Shown: positions 2,745-43,146, numbered from the stretch's first letter. The stretch: DNA of 59,104 bases from a virus (IMGVR_UViG_3300050016_000060:1-59104); one strand, 5' to 3'. Program-made: numbers and translations. Notes: generated by a model from the sequence alone, not told the origin.

Positions 2745-2750
2745 CCGGAG

Positions 2751-2936
2751 TTGATCTTGACGATACATAGCGACAAGAATAAGCTACTGGCAGCGGTGGA
2801 AATGGGCAGACGCGGTGGGCTTGCCCGTGCCAAGAAGTTGACGAAAAAGCGGCGGCGTGAAATCGCTCGCAACGCGGTCAATGCACGGTGGGCTAAGACG
2901 AAAGGGAAGAAGTCATGCCAAGGGAAGGCGAGATAA
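2751..2936 (+). CDS. Small basic protein (GRRGGLARA...RREIARNA..ARW type)
   Basis: ORF with GGAG RBS; motif common in small DNA-binding proteins of mobile elements; start uncertain. Confidence 0.6.
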   Translation: MILTIHSDKNKLLAAVEMGRRGGLARAKKLTKKRRREIARNAVNARWAKTKGKKSCQGKAR

Positions 2937-3130
2937 TCAAAACCCGCTGGCTCGTCCACGGCGGCACGGCGCATGTTCTCTACGAGACGGAGGAAGGCCA
3001 TAGCAAGACGCTGTGCGGCAAGCTGCTACGCGGGGGAGAGATCAAGCTGGCGACGGTGAAGGCGACGCAGGGAAAATGTCGGGCGTGTATCGAACGGGTT
3101 AGGGTGAGAAATCGCGTCATTCACGACTGA
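2915..3130 (+). CDS. Hypothetical protein, H/C Zn-binding pattern
   Basis: TAH...TLCG...C.AC. Confidence 0.55.
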   Translation: MPREGEIIKTRWLVHGGTAHVLYETEEGHSKTLCGKLLRGGEIKLATVKATQGKCRACIERVRVRNRVIHD

Positions 3131-3143
3131 AAGGACGGTGAGC

Positions 3144-3371
3144 ATGGCAACACGGATTATCTGCCGAGAGGATGGTAAAACGTGCTTTGACAGCCAATCG
3201 CAGGTTGCCAAAGAAGCGAACCGTCTTAGTGCCATGTACGGCAAATATCTCAAGTATTACTTTTGCCACTTGTGCAAGTCGTGGCATCTTACATCAACCA
3301 AGAGCGCCAAACAACTGGCCAGAGAACGCAAGAAAGCGGAGGGCAATCCATGTACTGCATCCAACGAGTAA
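3144..3371 (+). CDS. Hypothetical Zn-binding protein
   Basis: C...K..F.S...A...Y.C..C..WHLTS, common phage family. Confidence 0.6.
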   Translation: MATRIICREDGKTCFDSQSQVAKEANRLSAMYGKYLKYYFCHLCKSWHLTSTKSAKQLARERKKAEGNPCTASNE

Positions 3372-3541
3372 GCGACGGCTTCCGCCTCCTACCCACCCAG
3401 GACGGCGATACAGGGGCGTTTCTCTGCTGGCCAACGCTGGAACAAGCGGAAGCTGGCTTCAAGTTTCAACAGGAAAACTACGACATCGGCAGCGATCCCG
3501 ATGAGGAATGGGAGATTGTGGACATCATGGAAGCGAAGTGA
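3350..3541 (+). CDS. Hypothetical protein
   Basis: GGAGG RBS before ATG 3350; 63 aa. Confidence 0.55.
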   Translation: MYCIQRVSDGFRLLPTQDGDTGAFLCWPTLEQAEAGFKFQQENYDIGSDPDEEWEIVDIMEAK

Positions 3542-3579
3542 CGCGGCCAAGAAACGCGACGAATTGAAAGGGGCAGGCT

Positions 3580-3762
3580 ATGAAAAAGCAACTTAGCCGA
3601 CAACGGCGCTGGCAGATTGCGCAGCGGAAAGCGGGACGATGCGAACGCTGCGGGGAGCCACGAAGCGAACGGAGCGGCATTCATTGCGACGAATGCTTGG
3701 ATAAACGAGCGGCGGAAGAAAAAAATAAAACCCGCCTTGACACACTTGCGGCTTGTGGGTAA
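3580..3762 (+). CDS. Small Zn-finger protein
   Basis: GRCERCG...HCDEC. Confidence 0.55.
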   Translation: MKKQLSRQRRWQIAQRKAGRCERCGEPRSERSGIHCDECLDKRAAEEKNKTRLDTLAACG

Positions 3763-3765
3763 TCT
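3737..3765 (+). promoter_or_regulatory. Sigma70-type promoter upstream of non-coding element copy 1
   Basis: TTGACA-17 bp-TAATCT. Confidence 0.65.
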
Positions 3766-3886
3766 ACCGGAGTGAAATGAAAGCGGGGCGGCGGATTCTT
3801 TCGACAAGATGACCGCTCGCCCCTAAAAGCGTACCGACGAATCCATTCTATACGAATCACGTCGGAACGCAATTCCATTCCACGAC

Positions 3887-4155
3887 ATAGCCCCAGGATG
3901 GGCAAAGCCGCAAAACGTCGAAGGAAGCGGCAAGGGCCGTCAGCCGTGGTCTAGGCCCAAAGATTCGACCTCACTGCTTTTGATTCGCCCCGGTGCATCG
4001 GGTAAGGCTCAATACGGCCCGATCATCGACAGGACGTGACGGAGGAATCGTGGCAACGTCCCTAAAAAACCAGACCATGACAATCGGAACCGACTCACCC
4101 GCGAGGAATTTCCTGCATTGGCTCCCGCTGCGGCGGGGTCAATGCGCCCCGATCT
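3887..4155 (+). ncRNA. Candidate structured non-coding RNA, copy 1 (homologous to 44818-45110, - strand)
   Basis: Identical 44-nt and 26-nt blocks plus several 11-13 nt blocks shared with copy 2; compensatory changes in stems. Confidence 0.65.
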
Positions 4156-4206
4156 ACGCCGCTCAGAATCGGTGGGAGCGGTGTCTTTAACCCAAGGAGT
4201 AGAACG

Positions 4207-4488
4207 ATGACGCCAGAAGAACGAGCGCTATTGATACTTCCTCTTTGTACTGGCATGGACCTAGGCACAAAAGAGGAAGCTGATTATCACAGGAACGAAA
4301 TCGCCGCCGCCATTCGCCATGCCGTCCTTGCCGAGCGGGAAGCGTGTGCGCAGATAGCGGACCAGTGCGGTGATTACGTTGCCCGCGACAACATTCTGAC
4401 GAGGACGGTGAACTCAGAGAGTTCGTTGGAACTGTCGTCGGCCTTGTTCCAGAGGCCGCAACATGCAACATCCGGGTCGCCTATGTGA
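4207..4488 (+). CDS. Hypothetical phage protein
   Basis: AAGGAG RBS; AVLAEREACAQIAD motif frequent in phage proteins. Confidence 0.65.
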   Translation: MTPEERALLILPLCTGMDLGTKEEADYHRNEIAAAIRHAVLAEREACAQIADQCGDYVARDNILTRTVNSESSLELSSALFQRPQHATSGSPM

Positions 4489-4676
4489 CCGTGTACGAGA
4501 AAATCCCGTTCCTTGCGCAGCATCAATTCTTCGGTCCCGCCCAGGGGATTCTGCTCGTTTCGCATGACGGTGGGCAAGTCCCTGTCAAGGTTGACGTGGA
4601 ATATGGAGCATGTGCCGATTTTGAGTTGATCGTCGGAATTAAGATTCCTTGCTTTGTGGAAGGCAAGCCAATCGAA

Positions 4677-5022
4677 GGCAATAACATACTTGGGCAATCA
4701 CATACTTGACGCATCAGGAGAAAAAATGGCAAAAGCAAAACTTGGTGGCGCGGAAGTGACCTGCGATAAATTCGTGAAAGCACTCATTGATCGGCTGCTC
4801 GGTAACGAAAAACGCATCGAGCTGCTGACCACGGAAATAAACGACTTGCGCGACCAAATGGCGGAACAAGCTGCGTGGCTCGTTGCCGGCAAAGGTTTGA
4901 GGTTCAGCAATGTTCTTGACGCTGACAGCGATCTCCCAAATTCACACACGGTATTCGTCCCTATCGAGCTATGCAAGTTTGGTGGGGAAACCGAATCCTG
5001 ATGCGTCAAGTATGTGATTGCC
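4677..5022. mobile_element. Non-autonomous IS1595-like mini-cassette carrying one gene
   Basis: Perfect 30-bp inverted repeat 4690-4719 / 4996-5025; extra partial TIR at 4677-4692; flanks CAATCGAA / CAATGAAG (degenerate target duplication). Confidence 0.8.
4726..5001 (+). CDS. Hypothetical cassette cargo protein (91 aa)
   Basis: AGGAG RBS overlaps left inverted repeat; TGA stop lies in right TIR. Confidence 0.7.
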   Translation: MAKAKLGGAEVTCDKFVKALIDRLLGNEKRIELLTTEINDLRDQMAEQAAWLVAGKGLRFSNVLDADSDLPNSHTVFVPIELCKFGGETES

Positions 5023-5161
5023 CAATGAAGGCATCCTGCGCAGCGGCAGATCGGATCGCCAAGGAGCTATCCAAGACTCTTATAAAAGACGTTTGGGATC
5101 GACTGCCGATTGCAATAGCGTTACGGCAAGCGGCCATGAACAAGCCACGAAAGGCGAAGAA

Positions 5162-5371
5162 GTGACCTACATCCTGCTGCTTTTCCTACTCCTGCCGCAA
5201 TCGCAAGCCACGACGTTCGGCTCTGCGGTGCGGTACGAGTGGCGAGCGCCGGCGTGGGAAGGGTACTACATCCCGTCCGAGCGTGTCGGCGTGGTGAGGG
5301 TTGGCGGGACGTACATCAACGTCGATCTGACGGGGGTTACGAGCAAGTGCCGAGCGACGCTGGTGTCGTGA
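5162..5371 (+). CDS. Small secreted/membrane protein
   Basis: Hydrophobic N-terminus YILLLFLLLP; GTGA overlaps. Confidence 0.5.
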   Translation: MTYILLLFLLLPQSQATTFGSAVRYEWRAPAWEGYYIPSERVGVVRVGGTYINVDLTGVTSKCRATLVS

Positions 5372-5553
5372 ATGTGGCTCACGACTCTTACGATCCGGCT
5401 GGGGACATAATCAACCAGACGTTGCCGGTGCTGTACGCCGAGAAGGTCAAGGCGTGGCAGGTTTGGTCTGACGTTTGCGACAGAGCGGTGGATTCGGTGG
5501 TGGGCGTGCATAAGGCCAAGCCTGTGAAGGAGGATGGCGATGAATCAACCTGA
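5368..5553 (+). CDS. Hypothetical protein
   Basis: ORF in operon with overlapping start/stop. Confidence 0.45.
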   Translation: MNVAHDSYDPAGDIINQTLPVLYAEKVKAWQVWSDVCDRAVDSVVGVHKAKPVKEDGDEST

Positions 5554-5806
5554 AATTATCCAAGCAGTCCAAGACCTCATCAACGCCCCGCCCTACAACG
5601 GCTCGGTGCATGATTGCTACGTGGCGTTCTGTCCGAACGGTAGCATGGGCGGGGCCGAAGTCATGGAAGTGCTAATAGCGGCGCAAGTTACTCCGCGATT
5701 CATGGAGGGCGGTTACGCTAACGCGATCATCGCCAAGATCGGCAGTAATGGCACGCTGTCCGAGGCGGAACTCGATGCGGCCATAGCGAGTAACAAGGAG
5801 GCGTGA
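5540..5806 (+). CDS. Hypothetical protein
   Basis: GGAGG RBS; 88 aa. Confidence 0.6.
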   Translation: MNQPEIIQAVQDLINAPPYNGSVHDCYVAFCPNGSMGGAEVMEVLIAAQVTPRFMEGGYANAIIAKIGSNGTLSEAELDAAIASNKEA

Positions 5807-5985
5807 TGGAGCCTATTTCAATTACAGGATGCGTCGAATGTGAGCCAGACCTTTATATCTTGCCAATTCGGTATGAAGTTCAGTCAACAACCTCACCGCC
5901 TGTTTTAGCCGAGTGGTGGCAATGGCAAAAAGCATCTGGCGGCACAGATACACCGCGATGGGTCCGTGTTATTTCAGTGGGATAA
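5803..5985 (+). CDS. Hypothetical protein
   Basis: AAGGAGG RBS. Confidence 0.5.
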   Translation: MMEPISITGCVECEPDLYILPIRYEVQSTTSPPVLAEWWQWQKASGGTDTPRWVRVISVG

Positions 5986-5988
5986 AAG

Positions 5989-11531: not shown

Positions 11532-12527
11532 ATGCCCGCATACAGCTACTACGCCGAACAGCGCAACCTCTGGCAGCATGGACCCGCCATGAACGACTAC
11601 GCTGACAAACGACTGGCCCCGCAAAGCAAGCTGGCGTTGCATACGCAGTTTGCGGAGTACATGAGCGGGAAGCGGGTTTACCCGATCAACTTGGAAATAT
11701 CTCCAAGCGGTATTTGCCAAGCATCGTGCGATTTCTGTTTCTATGCGAATACCGGCGAGCTAGGTCATCATCGCAACGTCATGCTCGACACGGAGCGGGC
11801 GAAATTCCTCTTGCTCGAATGCCAAGAACTAGGCATCAAGTCCGTATCGTGGACTGGCGGTGGAGAGCCGACGTTGCATCCGCATTTCGAGCATCTCGTT
11901 GAAACCGCTCGCTACGCTGGATTGGAGCAAGGGCTTTTCACGAACGCTCTCGCCGCTCCGAAATACGATCCTCAATTACTCGCATGGGTCCGCGTAACGA
12001 TGACGGACAAGCCATTTCGCCCGGACTACATCAAGGCGTTGCGAACGTGCAAAACGGTTGGGATAGCGTTCAACTACAGCGGCCCACAAGATGACGCCTA
12101 TCTGCGTGACGTGCTGGCGATGGCGGTTGAGTGCCAAGTTTCGTATGTCCAGTGCAGGCCGGCCTTGAAGTTCCACGGGGAGACAACGGACATCGAGCCG
12201 CCGTCCATTGTGCATCCGTTGCTCCATATCACCGCGTATAAGTTCGACGAAGCACGCAAGCCGCATGGCACGCACTACGCGACATGCGAAGGATACCATC
12301 TTTCACCTATGTGCTGGGAAGACGGGAACGTAGATATTTGTTCGTACATGAGGCAGCATGAAGGATTCACGCTCGGCAATATCTACAAGCAAACGCTGAA
12401 AGAAATCCTTGACGCGGCTCCGCAAGATGTGCCTGTGCATAAGTGCTGCCAGGTAGCCTGCCGGCTGCATGAGACGAACCGCATGATCCATGCTTCACGA
12501 CGTATTGAAGATCGGAATTTTCCATGA
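11532..12527 (+). CDS. Radical SAM protein with SPASM/twitch domain
   Basis: CQASCDFC, TGGGEPTLHP, FTNA, C-terminal C...DGNVDIC...LGNI...CC..AC. Confidence 0.9.
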   Translation: MPAYSYYAEQRNLWQHGPAMNDYADKRLAPQSKLALHTQFAEYMSGKRVYPINLEISPSGICQASCDFCFYANTGELGHHRNVMLDTERAKFLLLECQELGIKSVSWTGGGEPTLHPHFEHLVETARYAGLEQGLFTNALAAPKYDPQLLAWVRVTMTDKPFRPDYIKALRTCKTVGIAFNYSGPQDDAYLRDVLAMAVECQVSYVQCRPALKFHGETTDIEPPSIVHPLLHITAYKFDEARKPHGTHYATCEGYHLSPMCWEDGNVDICSYMRQHEGFTLGNIYKQTLKEILDAAPQDVPVHKCCQVACRLHETNRMIHASRRIEDRNFP

Positions 12528-12970
12528 GCGAAATCGAAGTGCTTGACTTTTGTGCCCGTTTGCGGATAGCGATGTTGTATGCCGTTAATCATGGTCTTCG
12601 TGTAGAGGCTCATTTCGAGAATGGTCTTTACACGGACGCCGGGAAAATCAGGGCCGGAGTTTTCATTCATTACCAAAAAGACAAAGACGCGGTTCCGACA
12701 ACTAACTACAAGCCATTGACGGATGCGGAACGCAAGGAACTCCACAAGCCGTTGACGGAGGAATATGTCGCCCATTTCGGTGAAGGCCAGATTGCCCGTG
12801 ATGCAAGGCGACAACTGGCGAGAGAAATTGCCATAAAATGCAAGGAAGGCATACCCCTGGATTCCGAACCTACTTGCTCCGGCAACATGAAAGATGTCAC
12901 GTTCAGGATATTCAAAACGCGCGACGACGAACCGCCGCCTGAGCCTGAGATTGTGGAGAGGAAGCCGTGA
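12524..12970 (+). CDS. Hypothetical protein
   Basis: 148 aa ORF, ATGA overlap. Confidence 0.6.
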   Translation: MSEIEVLDFCARLRIAMLYAVNHGLRVEAHFENGLYTDAGKIRAGVFIHYQKDKDAVPTTNYKPLTDAERKELHKPLTEEYVAHFGEGQIARDARRQLAREIAIKCKEGIPLDSEPTCSGNMKDVTFRIFKTRDDEPPPEPEIVERKP

Positions 12971-13200
12971 GAATAGGATTGCCTTGTACAAAACGCATGA
13001 CGACTAAAGATGCAAGGATATTTTGCAATCAATTAAAAAAGGTGATGCTCAAGACTATTGCTGCAAACGAGCCTGTAACGGCATCATACGGTGATTGCTT
13101 TGGCGGATCAGGGAGGGGAATTGTATTTATTGAGCGTTCAATTGCTTGTAATGTTAGATCAATAATGAGGTCCATCAGATCGCGGAAAAAGAACCCATGA
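12967..13200 (+). CDS. Hypothetical basic protein (lower GC)
   Basis: Overlapping start and stop with both neighbours. Confidence 0.5.
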   Translation: MRIGLPCTKRMTTKDARIFCNQLKKVMLKTIAANEPVTASYGDCFGGSGRGIVFIERSIACNVRSIMRSIRSRKKNP

Positions 13201-14294
13201 CCGCAAATGAAGTCACAATCTGCACATGCACCCTAGGCGATTCCGCCTTGCATCTCGGCACTCAGCTTGCAGAATTGCGGCGATTCACCAAACGTCGTTT
13301 TCGTCAAATCGTCGTCGATGATGGGACTGCCGACGAAACCATGAAGTGCAACCAGCACAAAGAATGCCTTCATAACGGTGCGCTATGGCTAGAAAATCTC
13401 GGCCCGACGTATGGCTGTTCGTATTCGTGGAATGCCGCTCTTGAGGAAGTGCAAACGCCGTGGGCCTTCTTGATCGAGGACGGCTTGCGTCCCGGCGTCG
13501 GCTGGCTCGAAACCGCTCTGGATTTCATCGCCAAGATCGGCAACCGCTCTTGGCACGGTCACAAGGTAGGCATGGCCGGATTCTCCCATATTCAGGACTG
13601 GACGCTCCGCATGGCCGGCGTGATTCCGTCCGACCTATCGACGATGGAATGGTGGAAACAGCAAGGCTATCGGGATTTCTACGGAAGCGATTGGAACGAC
13701 GGCTATTGGTGCTGGCCACGGATCGCGGGCGGATTGCTGGCGAATGCGGAAGAACTGACCGATGAGCCGCTTGTTGCACGGAAGATCATGCAAAACGCGA
13801 TGGAGATTCCCGCCGAAATCAAGCATGACGAAAACTTTGTGAAGGACCACGACAACTACAAGCTATCTACGTTTCCTGGCAAGTCCCGCTGGCCGCGTTT
13901 CCGCTCGGCAAAGTGCGACTGGTATCCCGGCGCGTTCATGCTCGTCAACATGGACGCATGGCGAGCCGTTGGCAAGTTCCGCGACGGTTGCACGTTCTAC
14001 GAAGGGCATCTAGGCATACGCATGGGTCAGCATGGGTATCTATCGTTGGCCGTGGAAGGCCCGCCGTTTCTGCATACGCCGTCGCTTGGCTTCACGGCAG
14101 GGCCGAAAGTAGGCAAGACGCCACGGCTGCACCTGGACGTGCGGGATACGTTCCTTGCAGATTTTGGCTACGACAACATCGAGGCTCCGCGATTGGCAAA
14201 TGCGGTTGTGTCGCTGGGCACGCAGGCGAAGATTAACGCGGAACTTGCCAAGGTGGAATTGTGGATGGATGAGGGATGGGAGAAATGGCTATGA
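13197..14294 (+). CDS. Glycosyltransferase family 2-like (GT-A)
   Basis: IVVDDGT, G.SYSWN, FLIED, GAFMLV...W..VG.F. Confidence 0.75.
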   Translation: MTANEVTICTCTLGDSALHLGTQLAELRRFTKRRFRQIVVDDGTADETMKCNQHKECLHNGALWLENLGPTYGCSYSWNAALEEVQTPWAFLIEDGLRPGVGWLETALDFIAKIGNRSWHGHKVGMAGFSHIQDWTLRMAGVIPSDLSTMEWWKQQGYRDFYGSDWNDGYWCWPRIAGGLLANAEELTDEPLVARKIMQNAMEIPAEIKHDENFVKDHDNYKLSTFPGKSRWPRFRSAKCDWYPGAFMLVNMDAWRAVGKFRDGCTFYEGHLGIRMGQHGYLSLAVEGPPFLHTPSLGFTAGPKVGKTPRLHLDVRDTFLADFGYDNIEAPRLANAVVSLGTQAKINAELAKVELWMDEGWEKWL

Positions 14295-14491
14295 CGCCTG
14301 AACAATTACTAGCCGAATGGCAAGCTGCCAGGAAAGAATATCGCCTCTTGGATGACGAATGCACAGCGGCTTGGCGTGCCAAAGAGAACGAACGAACGCC
14401 AGCTAAGGACGCCTACAATAACGCACGCGAAGCAAAAGAAAAGGCGTTTTCTAAAATGTGTGAACTGCAACGACAGATGGAGAATTCATGA
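14291..14491 (+). CDS. Small coiled-coil hypothetical protein
   Basis: ATGA overlaps on both sides. Confidence 0.55.
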   Translation: MTPEQLLAEWQAARKEYRLLDDECTAAWRAKENERTPAKDAYNNAREAKEKAFSKMCELQRQMENS

Positions 14492-16369
14492 TTACGGTGT
14501 TGCTTTGACTTTCCCCACGGCCTCGGCGACGTACAGCAGCTTTCCGTCGTCCTCAAGCATCTCCGCAAATACCGTCCCGATTGGGCGGTTGACGTGAAGG
14601 TAGGCTACGGCAAGCATACGTGCCTTGCGGGAGTCTGCCGAAATGTTTTCACGGACAAGGACAAGCTAACCGGCGATTACAACACGAAGATAATGATTCC
14701 CTTCTTTGAAAATTGCCAATACTATACCGACCGCCCAAACAGCAAGGTCACGAACTGCCTGCGGGATGTGTTCGGCCTCGACTACGATCCATCGCTAGGA
14801 CGCTACGAGTGCCCGCGAAGCATCGAGAAAATGAACGTCGTCGCCGCATATCTCGCCTCGATTGGATGCAAGAGCAAAGAGCCGTGGAAGTGGAACGCCG
14901 TCGTCCTGCACTACGAAGGCAATACCTCTTGCCACAAGAAAAACCTACGCCATTGGCAGGTATCCGCATTATGCGATTCCATCCTCGAAGCTGGCCGCGT
15001 GCCGATCATCCTCGATTGGGACAAGCGAAGTACCGTGTACGATCAACGGGACATTTTCTGCCCCGTTGTTTCTCCCGATGACATCTGGGGGGGATTCGGC
15101 AGCGGAGACGCGGAGACGATTGCCTGCCTCATCTCACAAGCCGAAGCGTTCATCGGCATCGACAGCGGGCCAGGCAAGATTTCGTCATCGACCGATACAC
15201 CTTCGTTGCATTGCTGGATCGGGCATCACCCGATGCAATTTCACGATCCGGCTCCGAACACGACACACCTATTGCCGATCACGCATGATCGGTTGGACCC
15301 ATGCCGCGACAAACCGGAAATCCTTGACTACTTCAAGGAGCATTATCTCCACCGTACCTACATCGGGGAGCATGGGCTAGTGCAAGAGGGGCAGAAGTGG
15401 CTGGCCGAGGTCATTGGCAGTCCGCTCCCGTCGAATCAAAGGCCGGTCAAGTTCGTGCTGCCAAGCGGGATCGGTGATTGCGTTTGGGCCTTGCACAAAA
15501 TCCGTGCGATTGCCAACGGCAGGCCGATAGACGTGATTATCAGCGGCAATGCCAACAACGAAATCGAGAGGCGAGCGCTGCCATTTTTGAAGCGGTTCGA
15601 TTTCATTCGCTCGGCAGCGGTCCTCGATGTATCCGTGCTGATCGACCATAGCGATCCGGCAGACGCCAAGGGCCGCTATCGGTACGTGCCGGATGGGTTG
15701 AAGGGGAATCACCATTTCCTCATTCCGAACGCTACCTTGGAGCGGGGAGAGCGGTTGGAGACGTGGTTGCCGGAATATCCTATCGACTGGAAAACGATGG
15801 ACAGTTTCGATTGGTCCGGTACGGAGAAGGGGACGGAAGCGGGGAAGAAATTGCAACCGTTCGCGGCGTTCTATCTTGGCCCTGAGACTGGGAACACGGG
15901 AGAGGGGCACAATCGCGGTTCGCTCTGGACGCCTGGGCAATGGGTTGAATTAGGCAAAGCGTTGACGGATCGCGGCTTGCAGATTGCGATTGTCGGCGCG
16001 TCGTATGACCGTAGCTATTGGGAGCGGTTTGTGCGGCCAGAAGTTGAGCGGTCTGGAATGCAATGGGTTGACATGATCGGCAAGTTTGAAATCGGCGAGA
16101 CGTTCGCTTTTCTGCGGGAAGCGAAACTACTCTGTTCGTATCAATGCGGTCTGGCCATCGTCGGCCATTACATCGGCATGAACGTGATAACGTGGTGGCG
16201 CAGAGCCGGCGCGTCCATTCACCCGCACCGGCTCATTTCGTTCAATGAGGCGATGAAAGATAGCTGGACTAATCCAGCGTTGGCTGATCGGTACATCGGA
16301 GCAATTTACGGACGCGAAACGGTTGCCGATTTGCTTGGCGAAATTGACGCTAGGGGATGGACGCGATGA
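14488..16369 (+). CDS. Tandem GT9 (ADP-heptose heptosyltransferase-like) protein; needs a +1 frameshift at CTT-TGA-C (14503-14509)
   Basis: Two GT9-like halves (FPHGLGD...FIGIDSGP; LPSGIGD...W.ELGKAL...ETFAFL..A); ATG 14488 with GGAG RBS is out of frame by one base. Confidence 0.75.
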
Positions 16370-16581
16370 GGCTGGACATCGACGGCGTGACCGTGCCTAT
16401 CGGAGAGATGCACCTTTTCACGCTTCGCTTTTACCAGAAAGGCGGGAGCGGCATTGGCGAACTCTTGACCATCGAGCCGACGCTTTACATGGACGGAAAA
16501 CGGGTAACGCGATGCTGGCGAATGGTTATGGATATTTCGATCTTGCCCGATGAACACGGCGGAAACGCTAATACGCAATAA
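16366..16581 (+). CDS. Hypothetical protein
   Basis: ATGA overlap; 71 aa. Confidence 0.55.
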   Translation: MRLDIDGVTVPIGEMHLFTLRFYQKGGSGIGELLTIEPTLYMDGKRVTRCWRMVMDISILPDEHGGNANTQ

Positions 16582-16596
16582 AAAAAAATGACGGAT

Positions 16597-16638
16597 GATG
16601 ACATGCACGCTTTCGATTTCAGCCGATCGCTCGTCATC
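16597..16638 (-). ncRNA. TIGR-like guide unit 7 (last; followed by U-tract, doubles as terminator)
   Basis: GATGA-CGA-gcgatcggc-TGAAATCG-aaagcgtgca-TG-TCATC then T9. Confidence 0.8.
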
Positions 16639-16654
16639 TATCCGCCCTGGGCCT

Positions 16655-16694
16655 CCGGCACGTTCCGCTTCGGTTACAAGCCACGGTGCGCCGG
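16655..16694 (-). ncRNA. TIGR-like guide unit 6 (overlaps Tas stop codon)
   Basis: CCGG-CGC-accgtggct-TGTAACCG-aagcggaacg-TG-CCGG. Confidence 0.75.
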
Positions 16695-17465
16695 GTGATC
16701 GTTCCATTCAATCCAAAGCATCTTGAGGAAAAGTTTCGTCGCCAGCAACATGCCGTGCAAATGGCAACGCAGCTTTTTGTAATCGGGATGCGCCGCCTGA
16801 AACGTCGCCTTGGCTTCGTCGTAACGTGCCCGATAGATCGAATGATTTTGCTTCATTAACCCTTCCCCGATCAGGTAGGCAATCGAACGCCGACGAGGTG
16901 AATAGCCGAACTTCTCCCACTCTTCGGACGGCAATTTACCTTCCTTGCCGCGCCTCCACGTCGCTCCCATTGCTGTCTTGCCGTTGAAGATCAACGGGGC
17001 ACAACCGAGCCGCTTCCATACTTTTGCCGGATTGGCATAGTTGGCAAGGTCGCCAGTCTCGCCGATGACGATGGCGAGAAAGAGCAAGCCAAAACCGCGT
17101 TGCTCCGGTTTCTCGACCCATGCCTTGATCGGCAGTTTCTTGGCATATTGGAGCATGTTCTTTTCGATGGCATCCTTCTGCGCCTCAAAAGCATTGATGC
17201 CAATCAGCGTTGTCAGCACGATGGGCTTGAGCGGATGGTCCGCTCCCTCTTCCTCGATTGCCTTGATCTTAGCCGACGCCTCGATGAACTTCTTCGCTCG
17301 TTCCTCTTTGGTCATTGTCGTGCAATAGCCGAGCGTACCGGCAACTATTGCTTGCAAGCGATTGGATTGCATGTTGCGGCTTTTGACGATGATGCTACGT
17401 TGCCGCTGGAGCGGGACAAGTTGATCGACGATCAAGGCAATAGGACGTTTCGGCTGCATTGACAT
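16674..17465 (-). CDS. tasA: TasA-like Nop/IS110 Transposase_20-domain RNA-binding protein lacking a nuclease domain (263 aa)
   Basis: Coiled-coil N-terminus, RGFGLLFLAIVIGETGDLANYANPAKVWKRLGCAP, C-terminal H.HGMLLATKLFLKMLWIEW; no DEDD RuvC domain; AAAGGA RBS; flanked by guide units. Confidence 0.75.
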   Translation of the reverse strand: MSMQPKRPIALIVDQLVPLQRQRSIIVKSRNMQSNRLQAIVAGTLGYCTTMTKEERAKKFIEASAKIKAIEEEGADHPLKPIVLTTLIGINAFEAQKDAIEKNMLQYAKKLPIKAWVEKPEQRGFGLLFLAIVIGETGDLANYANPAKVWKRLGCAPLIFNGKTAMGATWRRGKEGKLPSEEWEKFGYSPRRRSIAYLIGEGLMKQNHSIYRARYDEAKATFQAAHPDYKKLRCHLHGMLLATKLFLKMLWIEWNDHPAHRGL

Positions 17466-17492
17466 GGTGTTTCCTTTCGGTTTGGGTGATTC

Positions 17493-17536
17493 TCTTGGCA
17501 TGATGCCACTCGGTTTCAAAGGATATCTCGTCAAGA
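17493..17536 (-). ncRNA. TIGR-like guide unit 5
   Basis: TCTTGA-CGA-gatatcctt-TGAAACCG-agtggcatca-TG-CCAAGA. Confidence 0.8.
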
Positions 17537-17539
17537 AGG

Positions 17540-17619
17540 TGCAAAAGAAGTCAGTAGAGGTTAATAACGCCTGGGTCGATTACACGAGCGTAGTCATTAG
17601 CCTACTGACTTCTTTTGCA
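17540..17619 (-). ncRNA. TIGR-like guide unit 4 with extended 18-bp outer stem
   Basis: Perfect IR 17540-17557/17602-17619 enclosing TGA-ctacgctcg-TGTAATCG-acccaggcgt-TA. Confidence 0.7.
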
Positions 17620-18097
17620 ACCTCTCGAATCCTCTCCGCAGCTTGTCCTCTGGCACGGACTCACGCACCGTCTTATCCTCTGGCACAAGCGTTGCGAGCC
17701 ATGTCGTCAGCATCACATTAAACCGATGGCCTTCCATAAGTTCCTTTTCGTCGGCAGCGATCTTCTCAAGTTCGTTGCCCATGACAGAGCCGAGCGACTT
17801 GCCAGCAATCGAGTAGAGGTAAACGCTCGCATAGGCATCGTTGACGGCCCCGGCAAGGTCTATTTTCGATTGATTGCTGTACGCTCCCGTATCGTTCTTG
17901 ATCTGACGATTCGTTATGTGCCGCTCGTCATGTACGCGGGCACGGATTGCCTCACGCACCAATTCGGCCTCGAATGATTTGAAATCGGGCAGATTCCGGA
18001 CTTGCTTATCCGCAAGATCGACTGCCGCGTCAATATCGTCGGGGAACTTCGCGGCACAACGCTGCGTTATCTTGATGACGCTCTGAGGAAACTCCAT
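17597..18097 (-). CDS. Unknown 166-aa protein embedded in the TIGR-like array (candidate accessory factor)
   Basis: AAGGAG RBS before ATG 18097; co-oriented with Tas gene and flanked by guide units. Confidence 0.7.
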   Translation of the reverse strand: MEFPQSVIKITQRCAAKFPDDIDAAVDLADKQVRNLPDFKSFEAELVREAIRARVHDERHITNRQIKNDTGAYSNQSKIDLAGAVNDAYASVYLYSIAGKSLGSVMGNELEKIAADEKELMEGHRFNVMLTTWLATLVPEDKTVRESVPEDKLRRGFERLQKKSVG

Positions 18098-18121
18098 CTG
18101 GAAACTCCTTTCGTTTGAATT

Positions 18122-18163
18122 GGCCGCAATTCGCGAGCCGGTTTCATGTGTTGATTCGCGGCC
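18122..18163 (-). ncRNA. TIGR-like guide unit 3
   Basis: GGCCG-CGA-atcaacaca-TGAAACCG-gctcgcgaat-TG-CGGCC. Confidence 0.8.
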
Positions 18164-18175
18164 TTGGTTTAAAAA

Positions 18176-18219
18176 TGGCGACATCGAAAGAGACGGTTTC
18201 AATCCTCGACTCGCCGCCA
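18176..18219 (-). ncRNA. TIGR-like guide unit 2
   Basis: TGGCGG-CGA-gtcgaggat-TGAAACCG-tctctttcga-TG-TCGCCA. Confidence 0.8.
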
Positions 18220-18225
18220 AACTGA

Positions 18226-18269
18226 TTTTGGCTCTCTTGTTTTCGCATTCAGCAACACATTCGCCAAAA
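18226..18269 (-). ncRNA. TIGR-like guide unit 1 (leader-proximal, variant boxes)
   Basis: TTTTGG-CGA-atgtgttgc-TGAATGCG-aaaacaagag-AG-CCAAAA. Confidence 0.65.
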
Positions 18270-18279
18270 CCATAATTGA

Positions 18280-18308
18280 ATCCTATAGCCATACTTTCGC
18301 TACGGCAA
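18280..18308 (-). promoter_or_regulatory. Promoter of the TIGR-Tas-like operon
   Basis: TTGCCG-17-TAGGAT, placing +1 just before unit 1. Confidence 0.55.
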
Positions 18309-18316
18309 TATCAATC

Positions 18317-18345
18317 TTGACGATTTCCCAAAATTTAGCTAATCT
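18317..18345 (+). promoter_or_regulatory. Divergent promoter for RHH-hldE
   Basis: TTGACG-17-TAATCT, 6 nt before ATG 18352. Confidence 0.6.
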
Positions 18346-18351
18346 ATGGCA

Positions 18352-18522
18352 ATGGCACGCCAAAAGAAAAAACCGGCTGACAAACGAACGAATTGCCTTC
18401 GCACGATGCTGACCGCAGAAGAACGTAAGCTAATCGACCGTGCTGCATCGGTTGCTGGCGAGGATACATCGTCGCATGTTCGCCGGCTCGTTCTGGACTT
18501 GATCCGCAAGGGGAGCCGATGA
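18352..18522 (+). CDS. Ribbon-helix-helix DNA-binding protein (not in ORF track)
   Basis: MARQKKKPADKRTNCLRTMLTAEERKLIDRAASVAGEDTSSHVRRLVLDLIRKGSR; ATGA overlap with hldE. Confidence 0.7.
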   Translation: MARQKKKPADKRTNCLRTMLTAEERKLIDRAASVAGEDTSSHVRRLVLDLIRKGSR

Positions 18523-19805
18523 ATCCAATCGACACGCTTATCGAAGCCGACCGCACGACGCCGAAACGCATTGCCATACTAGGCGACCGCATGACGGACA
18601 TATGGATTCACGGCCACTTGGGAACGTGCCAAGAGCAAGCCATGAAGTTCGTAGAAGATTCCAGAATTGCCACAGAGGGCGGAGCGGCGAACGCATGGCG
18701 GCAATTGGAGAACTGGAATTGCCGACGCTTCGGAATGGGATCGCCACGCCCAGAGCGAAACATCAAGACTCGTTTTGTTGTCGATGACAAAATACTCTTT
18801 CGCCATGACGTAGATTTTTTTGGCGAAGCCAATTCAATCGAAGCGAATCAGAAATCAGAATTTGATCGCTTGCTGGAAGCCAAACCAGACGCTTGCCTGA
18901 TAAGTGATTACGCGAAAGATTTCTGGACGCCTGCCTTTATCCGCGATGTCATCACCTACGCCAACGGACGCGGCATTCCGGTCGTAGCGGACGCGAAGAG
19001 AGAGCCGACAGTTTACAAGGGAGCAATCATCAAGTGCAATAAGGCTTATCGCCTACATTTTTATACCTATGAAACATCCAGAAATGACACCTTGGTTATT
19101 ACCAGCGGCGAATATGAGCCGACCGTTATAAGCAACGATGTCGATTTGCATATGCCGAAAGCCCATCCCTATGTCCAATGCGTCAACCACATCGGTGCAG
19201 GAGATAGCTTTGCGGCACATCTAACCCTTGCTCTCGCCCACGGCCTCTCGCTTGAAGATGCCGCCACTATCGCTCATTCAGCCGGTCGTGTTTATGTGCA
19301 ATATCCGCATGGCCGTCCACCGTGGCCACACGAAATCAAGCGCGACATTGATCCACTGGCCGGCAAAATCCTCATCGGCCCCGACATGCCAGGACTCCGC
19401 AAGAGCATCCCCGGCAGGATCGTATTCAGTAACGGCTGTTACGATTTGCTAGGCGCGCATCATCTATACTGCCTCGAAAAGTCCAAGCAATTCGGCGACG
19501 TTCTAGTTGTCGGCGTCAACTCCGATGAAAGCGTGCGTCGGCTGAAAGGACCGAAGCGGCCTATCCAACCGCTTGCAGATCGCGTTGCCATGCTCTGCGG
19601 GCTTTCCTTCGTCGATTGGGTTGTGCCGTTCGATCAAAATGACCCGTCCGAAATCATGCGGCTGTTGAAGCCGGACATTCGCACGAAGGGGGATTTCCCC
19701 GAACTGAATCGGGCCGGCGATGAACACGCCAAAGAAGTGCGATTGATTCCACCGCTGCCAGGCTATTCGACCACGAACACGCTTCGCAAAATTATGGACT
19801 CGTAA
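18519..19805 (+). CDS. hldE: Bifunctional heptose-7-phosphate kinase / heptose-1-phosphate adenylyltransferase
   Basis: PfkB kinase domain (GD.M.D, GGAAN, SDYAK, GAGDSF) + cytidylyltransferase-like domain (FSNGCYDLL..HH, VVGVNSDESVRRLKGPKRPI). Confidence 0.9.
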   Translation: MNPIDTLIEADRTTPKRIAILGDRMTDIWIHGHLGTCQEQAMKFVEDSRIATEGGAANAWRQLENWNCRRFGMGSPRPERNIKTRFVVDDKILFRHDVDFFGEANSIEANQKSEFDRLLEAKPDACLISDYAKDFWTPAFIRDVITYANGRGIPVVADAKREPTVYKGAIIKCNKAYRLHFYTYETSRNDTLVITSGEYEPTVISNDVDLHMPKAHPYVQCVNHIGAGDSFAAHLTLALAHGLSLEDAATIAHSAGRVYVQYPHGRPPWPHEIKRDIDPLAGKILIGPDMPGLRKSIPGRIVFSNGCYDLLGAHHLYCLEKSKQFGDVLVVGVNSDESVRRLKGPKRPIQPLADRVAMLCGLSFVDWVVPFDQNDPSEIMRLLKPDIRTKGDFPELNRAGDEHAKEVRLIPPLPGYSTTNTLRKIMDS

Positions 19806-43013: not shown

Positions 43014-43146
43014 GGGACGGCAAACGCGATTTTCTCACGTTAAGCCGCCCCTTGCATGGCGTCTGAGGTGCAAGCCTATCTCCCGTTGCAACAGGAGTTC
43101 GGCCAATCACGAAACGGCTCACGGAAGAAACCGCGTTTGCCGTCCC
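43014..43146 (-). other. Structured intergenic element between scaffold and decoration genes
   Basis: Perfect 15-bp IR 43014-43028/43132-43146 enclosing further stems. Confidence 0.6.

Follow-up and report, generated by a model that had tools for sequence, protein, structure and literature searches.

The window, by which we mean the whole stretch of DNA that was analysed, is an IMG/VR virus record of 59,104 bp with an estimated completeness of about 80% (CheckV). Its minus strand carries a gene for a 166-aa protein, a co-oriented gene for a 263-aa Tas protein (tasA; 16674–17465) and seven guide units distributed around and between them. Read along the minus strand, the order is units 1–3, the 166-aa gene, units 4 and 5, tasA, units 6 and 7, and a run of nine T:

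18224–18271, minus strand: guide unit 1; 8-bp stem, CGA-9 nt-TG-AATG-CGA-9 nt-AG with a variant last box (cmsearch 19.2 bits, E 0.041)
18174–18221, minus strand: guide unit 2; 6-bp stem, CGA-9-TG-AAAC-CGT-9-TG (cmsearch 30.3 bits, E 1e-4, the best match in the window)
18119–18166, minus strand: guide unit 3; 5-bp stem, CGA-9-TG-AAAC-CGG-9-TG (cmsearch 21.7 bits, E 0.011)
18105–18109, minus strand: Shine-Dalgarno sequence AGGAG, 7 nt before the ATG (18097) of the 166-aa gene (sequence reading)
17597–18097, minus strand: 166-aa gene (ORF; family of 650 representatives; AF2 model; synteny with TasA)
17531–17628, minus strand: guide unit 4; 27-bp stem (24 of 27 paired), 44-nt loop TGA-9-TG-TAAT-CGA-9-TA (inverted repeat; cmsearch E 0.55)
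17491–17538, minus strand: guide unit 5, canonical; 6-bp stem, CGA-9-TG-AAAC-CGA-9-TG (cmsearch 28.2 bits, E 3.1e-4; strict scan)
16674–17465, minus strand: tasA, 263 aa; solo Nop domain (coiled coil and C-terminal RNA-binding domain), no nuclease domain (AF2, Foldseek)
16655–16694, minus strand: guide unit 6; CCGG/CCGG stem, CGC-9-TG-TAAC-CGA-9-TG (cmsearch 22.0 bits, E 9.4e-3)
16594–16641, minus strand: guide unit 7, canonical; CGA-9-TG-AAAT-CGA-9-TG, stem of 5 bp that can be extended to about 9 bp (cmsearch 24.1 bits, E 2.9e-3; strict scan)
16580–16588, minus strand: run of nine T right after unit 7 (sequence reading)

The 166-aa ORF represents a real gene, which is preceded by the ribosome-binding site that the initial annotation had noted; unit 3 ends about 10 nt ahead of this site. 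In the protein collection the gene is covered by an alternative 231-aa frame (P0001) which starts at 18292. The nearest homologue of the 166-aa protein opens with the same ME.P.SV residues, and the family profile matches from the first residue on in most members, which are mostly 160–180 aa long. Since both the homologue starts and the member lengths fit the 166-aa form, the longer frame is taken to be a read-through of the upstream guide units. The location of the gene between guide units 3 and 4, in the orientation of tasA, agrees with the coordinates as well as with the covariance-model match to seven units, and its last codons do form the 5′ arm of the long stem of unit 4, as had been recognized before. 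Divergent from the array lies a 58-aa ORF (18346–18522, plus strand) with weak matches of the ribbon-helix-helix (RHH) type (NikA-like, 4.2e-4; RHH_7, 8.1e-3), both below the Pfam cut-offs, which could regulate either flank.

The guide units were searched with a covariance model (R1) of 110 units, all of them from loci other than the window, and the window was scored on both strands. The top seven matches are exactly units 1–7, all located within 16594–18271 of the minus strand, with rough E-values of 1e-4 to 0.55; an eighth match, elsewhere in the window, has an equally rough E-value of 0.94. A strict scan for CGA/TG boxes closed by a stem of at least five pairs identified three units in the window, as opposed to four in total over 20 shuffles, and two of the three flank tasA on the tasA strand. 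With one box relaxed, three further units ahead of the 166-aa gene are recovered, along with one that spans the stop codon of tasA. Covariation of the stems was assessed in the 110 units from other loci, where 376 cells changed on both sides compared with 114.5 in shuffles, these units having been selected for possessing a stem. Within the window, unit 1 folds at -17.8 kcal/mol (z -3.65) and unit 7 at -21.7 (z -2.80).

Unit 4 forms the strongest of 12 long-loop hairpins in the whole window (RNAfold -47.2 kcal/mol, z -8.69; none of 200 shuffles as good), and its core is the weakest of the seven matches to the covariance model (E 0.55, rank 7). The arms of this hairpin (17531–17557 and 17602–17628) comprise 27 nt each and are 89% complementary; the 5′ arm shares sequence with the last codons and stop codon of the 166-aa gene, and the 3′ arm runs into the stem of unit 5. 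The second-best long-loop hairpin of the window is found at 43014–43146, where a 23-bp stem encloses an 87-nt loop, and has no match to the guide-unit model. Unit 6 also overlaps coding sequence: the tasA stop codon lies within its central TG-TAAC-CGA motif (16674–16694), so that the end of the coding region doubles as a guide unit.

The run of nine T downstream of unit 7 is a possible transcript end, and it is absent from the terminator scan because the loop is too long for the rule used in that scan. No promoter was detected by a scan of 16400–18500 (mean of 1.4 in shuffles), and Rfam and tRNA scans of the window returned nothing. When the seven spacer pairs were compared with the window in tandem arrangements with gaps of 0–2 nt, no site with two or fewer mismatches was found; eight sites with three mismatches were taken as being at about chance level. 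The sequencing runs listed for this DNA are DNA runs from peat metagenomes, with no RNA run among them; contigs from four runs match the window without differences, leaving no variation to analyse.

The 263-aa protein had initially been described as a Tas-like protein without a catalytic domain, and its fold bears this out. The AF2 model (pLDDT 92), which was built with 40 homologues, begins its helices at residue 7 as a coiled coil, with neither an HNH nor a RuvC domain ahead of the Nop domain. In a Foldseek comparison, TIGR-TasR (9mty, E 7.7e-5) and TasH chains (9w04/21kl/9vzx) fill the first ten rows, followed by the IS621/ISCro4 recombinases and then by archaeal Nop5; 9MTY is the accession of the TasR RNP model (Faure et al., 2025, PMC12045711). 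At the sequence level the resemblance to 9mty is weak (phmmer E 0.28), a PHROG match is annotated as “transposase” (9.5e-8), and no Pfam family is matched at E ≤ 1. Given the Tas fold and the lack of an N-terminal nuclease domain, the protein is identified as a genuine TasA. A total of 455 homologues were found, and the clade is present in two contigs of the genome collection, one of them being the same phage contig as locus L009. The TasA alignment contains insertions of variable length at columns of about 290–340, which match units inside the tas genes. With a Nop-fold Tas protein and a unit array, the locus, as judged from the predicted structure and the unit model, agrees with a stem-loop TIGR-TasA system in the features tested.

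The initial annotation had recognized no domain in the 166-aa protein, and accordingly no Pfam family is matched at E ≤ 0.01. The same holds for its relatives, as no meaningful Pfam (E ≤ 0.01), PHROG or PADLOC family was found among 63 members of the family. A reading as an orphan gene, based on a word-indexed search which gave one relative with 43% identity, was overturned by an exhaustive profile search with HMMER that revealed 650 representative clusters at E ≤ 1e-3, of which 535 are retained at a cut-off of 1e-10 and 213 at 1e-30. The sole relative from the word search and the TasA homologue P0031 may share a 1794-bp contig. A tblastn search of the protein against GenBank phages gave no match, a first viral scan using a two-sequence alignment of the family gave no locus, and the protein atlas had no usable match for the protein. 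Its AF2 model (pLDDT 89.6) is almost all-helical with a small hairpin, residues 71–90 being of low confidence. Foldseek comparison of this model to the PDB and BFVD yielded nothing at E ≤ 0.001, and the best VIA match (Z 4.9) is confined to residues 1–57, with the C-terminal part barely covered. The family therefore comprises hundreds of clusters and has no relative in Pfam, PHROG, PADLOC, PDB or BFVD. Across 150 members, R59 is conserved in all 150, E117 in 141, H60 and N127 in 137 each, N63 in 132, H124 in 128 and K78 in 125. The median pI of the family is 8.86 and that of the window copy 5.97, i.e., acidic.

Several assignments to known families were considered. HEPN metal-independent RNases are characterized by a bundle of four helices that carries the motif R-x(4-6)-H. 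In the 166-aa family the invariant R59 and H60 are adjacent and N63 follows four positions on, and no HEPN match was found in Pfam, so that HEPN was rejected at the level of motif and Pfam. The Translin/TRAX family (C3PO RNase) is marked by a fold of seven helices and by acidic catalytic residues in TRAX. An alignment of the 166-aa family profile to Archaeoglobus fulgidus TRAX has an E-value of 0.12, covers residues 4–57 only and was treated as chance; Drosophila translin compared to the 166-aa model gives Foldseek E-values of 7.5–9.4, a TM score of 0.19 and a VIA Z below 2. A glutamate-dehydrogenase profile match at E about 0.1 was likewise rejected. Co-folding of the 166-aa family with TasA (score 0.00, mark 0.32, no controls) was uninformative either way.

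In the loci gathered here, the family is closely tied to TasA. Using a TasA profile, 25 IMG/VR loci were gathered, of which 24 are assessable; the remaining one (L023) was left out since its contig ends at the tas gene. A member of the 166-aa family lies directly upstream of tasA on the same strand in 23 of the 24 loci. Of these partners, 22 score at E ≤ 6.4e-36, and the one found beside a divergent Tas (L026) at 2.9e-4, or at 3.7e-5 when fewer frames are searched. In the one other assessable locus, L022, no match to the family is present in the 1470 nt upstream of tas or elsewhere in the locus. L022 contains a RecA-like ORF (164–1231; Pfam RecA, 1.6e-11), which is followed by four to five guide units and tas. 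Conversely, viral scans seeded with the 166-aa family identified one of one and three of three loci on contigs with TasA. A metagenome scan seeded in the same way yielded nine loci, of which all three with enough downstream DNA carry TasA and the other six end inside the partner gene or within about 240 nt after it. Co-occurrence with TasA-like genes, as expected for the partner proposed in the initial annotation, is thus found from both directions, i.e., in 23 of 24 TasA-seeded and seven of seven family-seeded assessable loci, the latter without a counter-example but small in number (n only 7) and obtained with seeding patterns that cover only sub-groups of the family. The two proteins also diverge together, as the pairwise distances of partner and TasA are correlated (Mantel r 0.675, none of 2000 permutations as high, n=25). 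The partner evolves faster, with a mean pairwise identity of 32% vs 49% for TasA. Fusions were found in neither direction, given that none of 120 TasA homologues matches the 166-aa family and none of 150 family members contains a Tas domain.

The arrangement of guide units around the two genes is recurrent. A scan of 290 kb of loci with one central-motif pattern detected 208 units on the gene strand vs eight on the other. In the two-gene loci, 38 units precede the partner gene, 96 fall into the stretch separating it from tasA, 15 are inside tasA and 48 downstream, and no unit is centred inside the partner gene. This single-pattern scan missed L014 and L026, which have variant central motifs, and L021, which has short stems. 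The partner gene and tasA are 131 to 2027 nt apart (median 375). In the window and roughly ten other loci, units flank the partner gene on either side, and in most others the partner gene heads the array. Two arrays are unusual in their organization. In L021 (3430–6450), units with few-pair stems flank the partner gene on either side and also follow tas; they are very densely arranged, at a spacing of about 45 nt, and this array looks intermediate between the stem-loop and dual-repeat types. The metagenome locus L030 (1165–3190), where the partner gene and tasA are about 2 kb apart, contains at least 18 guide units and thereby the longest array seen. Due to the two-way synteny, the co-divergence and the recurrent placement of the gene inside arrays or at their head, a functional link of the 166-aa protein with TasA and the array is strongly supported, and the protein very probably works in the same pathway as TasA and the tigRNAs.

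More distant Tas relatives are found in cultured phages. The genes upstream of Tas in Microcystis phage Mvi-JY20 and Arthrobacter phage Talia1610 have no similarity to the 166-aa family. None of three cultured-phage Tas loci has a gene-strand match to the unit model at E ≤ 1, the sole row being on the opposite strand of the Microcystis locus (E 0.53). In Rhizobium phage RHph_X2_25 (MW960032.1), which has a Sinorhizobium host, a distant Tas relative (HMM E 1e-16) is located between two repressor-type genes. A 199-aa gene directly upstream of this Tas (L039:1576–2175) shows a weak alignment with the family (hhalign E 0.01, probability 4%), which covers the most conserved motif of the 166-aa family.

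The unit of a stem-loop array has been described as two intervals with a short loop between them, closed by a palindrome (Xu et al., 2026, 10.64898/2026.09.09.750476). The locus shares a solo Nop-domain Tas with the stem-loop TIGR-TasA systems, which are represented by PlTasA from a Peromyscus leucopus gut contig, MbTasA from Minisyncoccota and BlTasA from Bifidobacterium longum. Further shared features are the palindromic stems, the two 9-nt spacers, a CGA-type box C, a TG box D and a 4-nt gap, as well as the viral setting and the presence of units upstream, downstream and inside of tas. The motif set of the units is exactly that given for TIGRFinder in the main text. In contrast to the described stem-loop systems, the array here includes, or is headed by, a second conserved protein gene. 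The PlTasA array consists of three sub-arrays separated by a region of about 450 nt which the main text terms “intergenic” and which may or may not hold a like gene. A partner of this kind is absent from the TIGR-Tas main texts searched, and the supplements and TIGRSafari may list such a neighbour.

In its main text, the original survey reported TasA to be without clear associations to other proteins, with the exception of an occasional ParB-like gene (Faure et al., 2025, PMC12045711). The partner in these tasParB-tasA loci is ParB-like by HHpred and accompanies dual-repeat arrays, according to the same text (Faure et al., 2025, PMC12045711). In contrast, none of 63 members of the 166-aa family has a ParB match in Pfam at E ≤ 0.01, ParB is not among the listed fold matches, and the units here are bounded by variable palindromic stems instead of conserved edge repeats (10-nt edge/loop repeats). 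As judged from Pfam, the listed fold matches and the array type, the 166-aa protein is probably not the described TasParB, which itself has been named at the HHpred level.

Another comparison is offered by the box C/D snoRNPs. In these particles, Nop5 acts on box C/D RNAs together with small partner proteins. TasA resembles Nop5 as a scaffold, Nop5 being among its fold matches. Unlike L7Ae and fibrillarin, the 166-aa protein is helical, and neither family occurs among its Pfam or listed fold matches.

Regarding the step at which the 166-aa protein would act, guide maturation deserves particular attention. Dual-repeat Tas proteins cut their own precursors by means of a Tyr/His dyad on a C-terminal loop; every stem-loop clade is described in the main text as lacking this loop, with an uncharacterised maturation mechanism for which an unidentified Tas activity, host RNases and “auxiliary factors” are considered (Xu et al., 2026, 10.64898/2026.09.09.750476). 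Arrays of stem-loop TasA and TasR are processed in E. coli, where the authors favour a host RNase over a system-encoded one, and in one system added flanking sequence sharpened processing (10.64898/2026.09.09.750476). In addition, other TasA proteins have been reported to bind DNA and repress transcription with the tigRNA alone (10.64898/2026.09.09.750476; 10.64898/2026.08.11.744272).

In the mechanism proposed here, a single minus-strand transcript would contain units 1–3, the 166-aa gene, units 4 and 5, tasA, units 6 and 7 and the T-run. Each unit would form a hairpin with two 9-nt spacers in the loop, framed by the box C/D-like CGA and TG motifs. The 166-aa protein would recognize these hairpin units in the very precursor by which it is encoded and either cut them or help their release and loading, using an active or RNA-binding site that may be formed by the near-invariant R59, H60, N63, E117, H124 and N127. 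The excised units would then be loaded as tigRNAs into a TasA dimer, as established for other TasA proteins. By analogy to these proteins, spacer A would pair with one DNA strand and spacer B with the other, leading to nuclease-free binding and repression.

We tentatively favour the view, to which we assign a little less than an even chance, that the 166-aa protein acts in trans in tigRNA maturation or in the assembly of the RNP, since the C-terminal Tyr/His processing loop is missing from stem-loop Tas proteins. A small conserved protein that is encoded in the precursor and possesses an invariant Arg along with conserved His, Asn and Glu residues fits this gap best. Dedicated guide-RNA processing proteins exist in CRISPR systems, namely Cas6 and Csy4. 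As in Cas6/Csy4 and the Tyr/His loop of Tas, the proposed job would be to free hairpin-bounded guides from a precursor of the same locus without a metal-dependent nuclease fold, and conserved His, Arg and Asn residues are present; in contrast to them, no similarity in sequence or fold is found, and the analogy is limited to the role. The more specific proposal that the family represents a new-fold, metal-independent endoribonuclease or loading factor supplying guide maturation in trans in stem-loop TIGR systems is somewhat doubtful. Several observations speak against a role in maturation. Neither a catalytic fold nor a catalytic motif was recognized in the protein by Pfam, PHROG, PADLOC, Foldseek or VIA, and the acidic pI of the window copy (5.97) is unusual for an RNA binder. 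Stem-loop arrays are processed in E. coli, from constructs that may or may not include a partner-like gene, and L022 belongs to the same TasA clade and has the RecA-like ORF instead of the partner gene. Moreover, synteny and co-divergence of adjacent genes reflect shared inheritance, not a shared mechanism.

The main rival places the protein at the DNA target. As an effector or co-repressor that is recruited by, or binds beside, the DNA-bound TasA-tigRNA complex, it would add an output which TasA lacks, e.g., R-loop stabilization, a block of RNA polymerase or replication, or recruitment of host factors. The strict synteny and co-divergence with a nuclease-less TasA would suit such a role. TasA alone yields only binding and repression, and the ParB-like partners of other TasA genes indicate that second proteins do join such systems. 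Its N-terminal three-helix part is weakly similar to HMG boxes (Z 4.0–4.2), TetR (4.1) and HigA (2.6), all below a meaningful level. The characterised TasA proteins, however, bind their targets and repress without a partner (10.64898/2026.09.09.750476; 10.64898/2026.08.11.744272), and with only 166 aa, no recognisable enzymatic domain and no TasA-partner fusion among 120 TasA homologues and 150 family members, we consider an effector unlikely. The same reports bear on the initial proposal of a two-protein RNA-guided system, in which this protein might supply an effector, processing or regulatory function to a Tas-like protein without catalytic domain: the partnership itself is strongly supported by synteny, co-divergence and array position, whereas the notion that TasA needs a partner is weakened.

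Two further readings would leave the protein outside of guide maturation and targeting. As a small DNA- or RNA-binding regulator, it could control transcription or translation of the array and tasA, comparable to the small regulators beside anti-CRISPR or CRISPR operons. This would be in line with a small helical protein whose gene is the first of the operon in most loci and which evolves faster than TasA (32% vs 49% mean pairwise identity), but no helix-turn-helix or ribbon-helix-helix family was found in 63 members, and the invariant R59 together with H60, E117, H124 and N127 would be more typical of an active or ligand site than of a recognition helix. A separate small RHH-like gene (18346–18522, plus strand) is already located divergently at the locus, and a regulator appears improbable. 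Finally, the gene could be an unrelated phage gene that has been adjacent to tasA since their common ancestor and has no role in the system. All examined loci are from related phages, any pair of neighbouring genes that has stayed together would be expected to show adjacency and a Mantel correlation, and L022 lacks the partner. Yet the pairing is retained down to 38–46% TasA identity and about 32% mean partner identity, in contigs of very different size and several sample sets, and across intergenic DNA of 131 to 2027 nt filled with differing numbers of units. A weak homologue occupies the same place beside the much more divergent Tas of L026 (E 2.9e-4), and the partner gene has no unit centred in it, compared with 15 units inside tasA. 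A mere neighbour is thus very improbable.

TIGR-Tas systems have been described only in 2025, and the natural role of nuclease-less TasA is called unknown in the main text of a recent study (10.64898/2026.09.09.750476). The locus is a stem-loop TIGR-TasA system with a conserved accessory protein, which is probably a missing second component of such systems. As the 166-aa family travels with one TasA clade inside its guide arrays, it offers a concrete candidate for the maturation gap. If it is a maturation factor, this TasA clade would constitute an obligate two-protein RNA-guided system, and the protein could process multiplexed stem-loop guides; if it acts at the DNA target instead, it would show how a bare RNA-guided binder gains an output. 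In either case, annotation that treats the DNA between units as non-coding, or extends ORFs through units as in the 231-aa call, would miss the partner gene.

With respect to the wider window, the TIGR locus is situated inside an apparent sugar/cell-envelope modification module (11532–16369 and 18519–19805). This module includes a 428-aa ORF matching a heptose kinase/adenylyltransferase PHROG (3.5e-25) and large ORFs of 365 and 591 aa. A 331-aa ORF carries a CxxxCxxC motif, which we take to be typical of radical-SAM enzymes. A region of about 3.2 kb (2745–5988) contains no ORF of at least 120 aa on either strand, and scans of this region returned no guide-unit match, Rfam family or tRNA. Tail-fibre-like genes follow from 20246 on, and the contig starts with thirteen copies of a 12-nt tandem repeat (1–157; 24-nt super-period, 93% matches).
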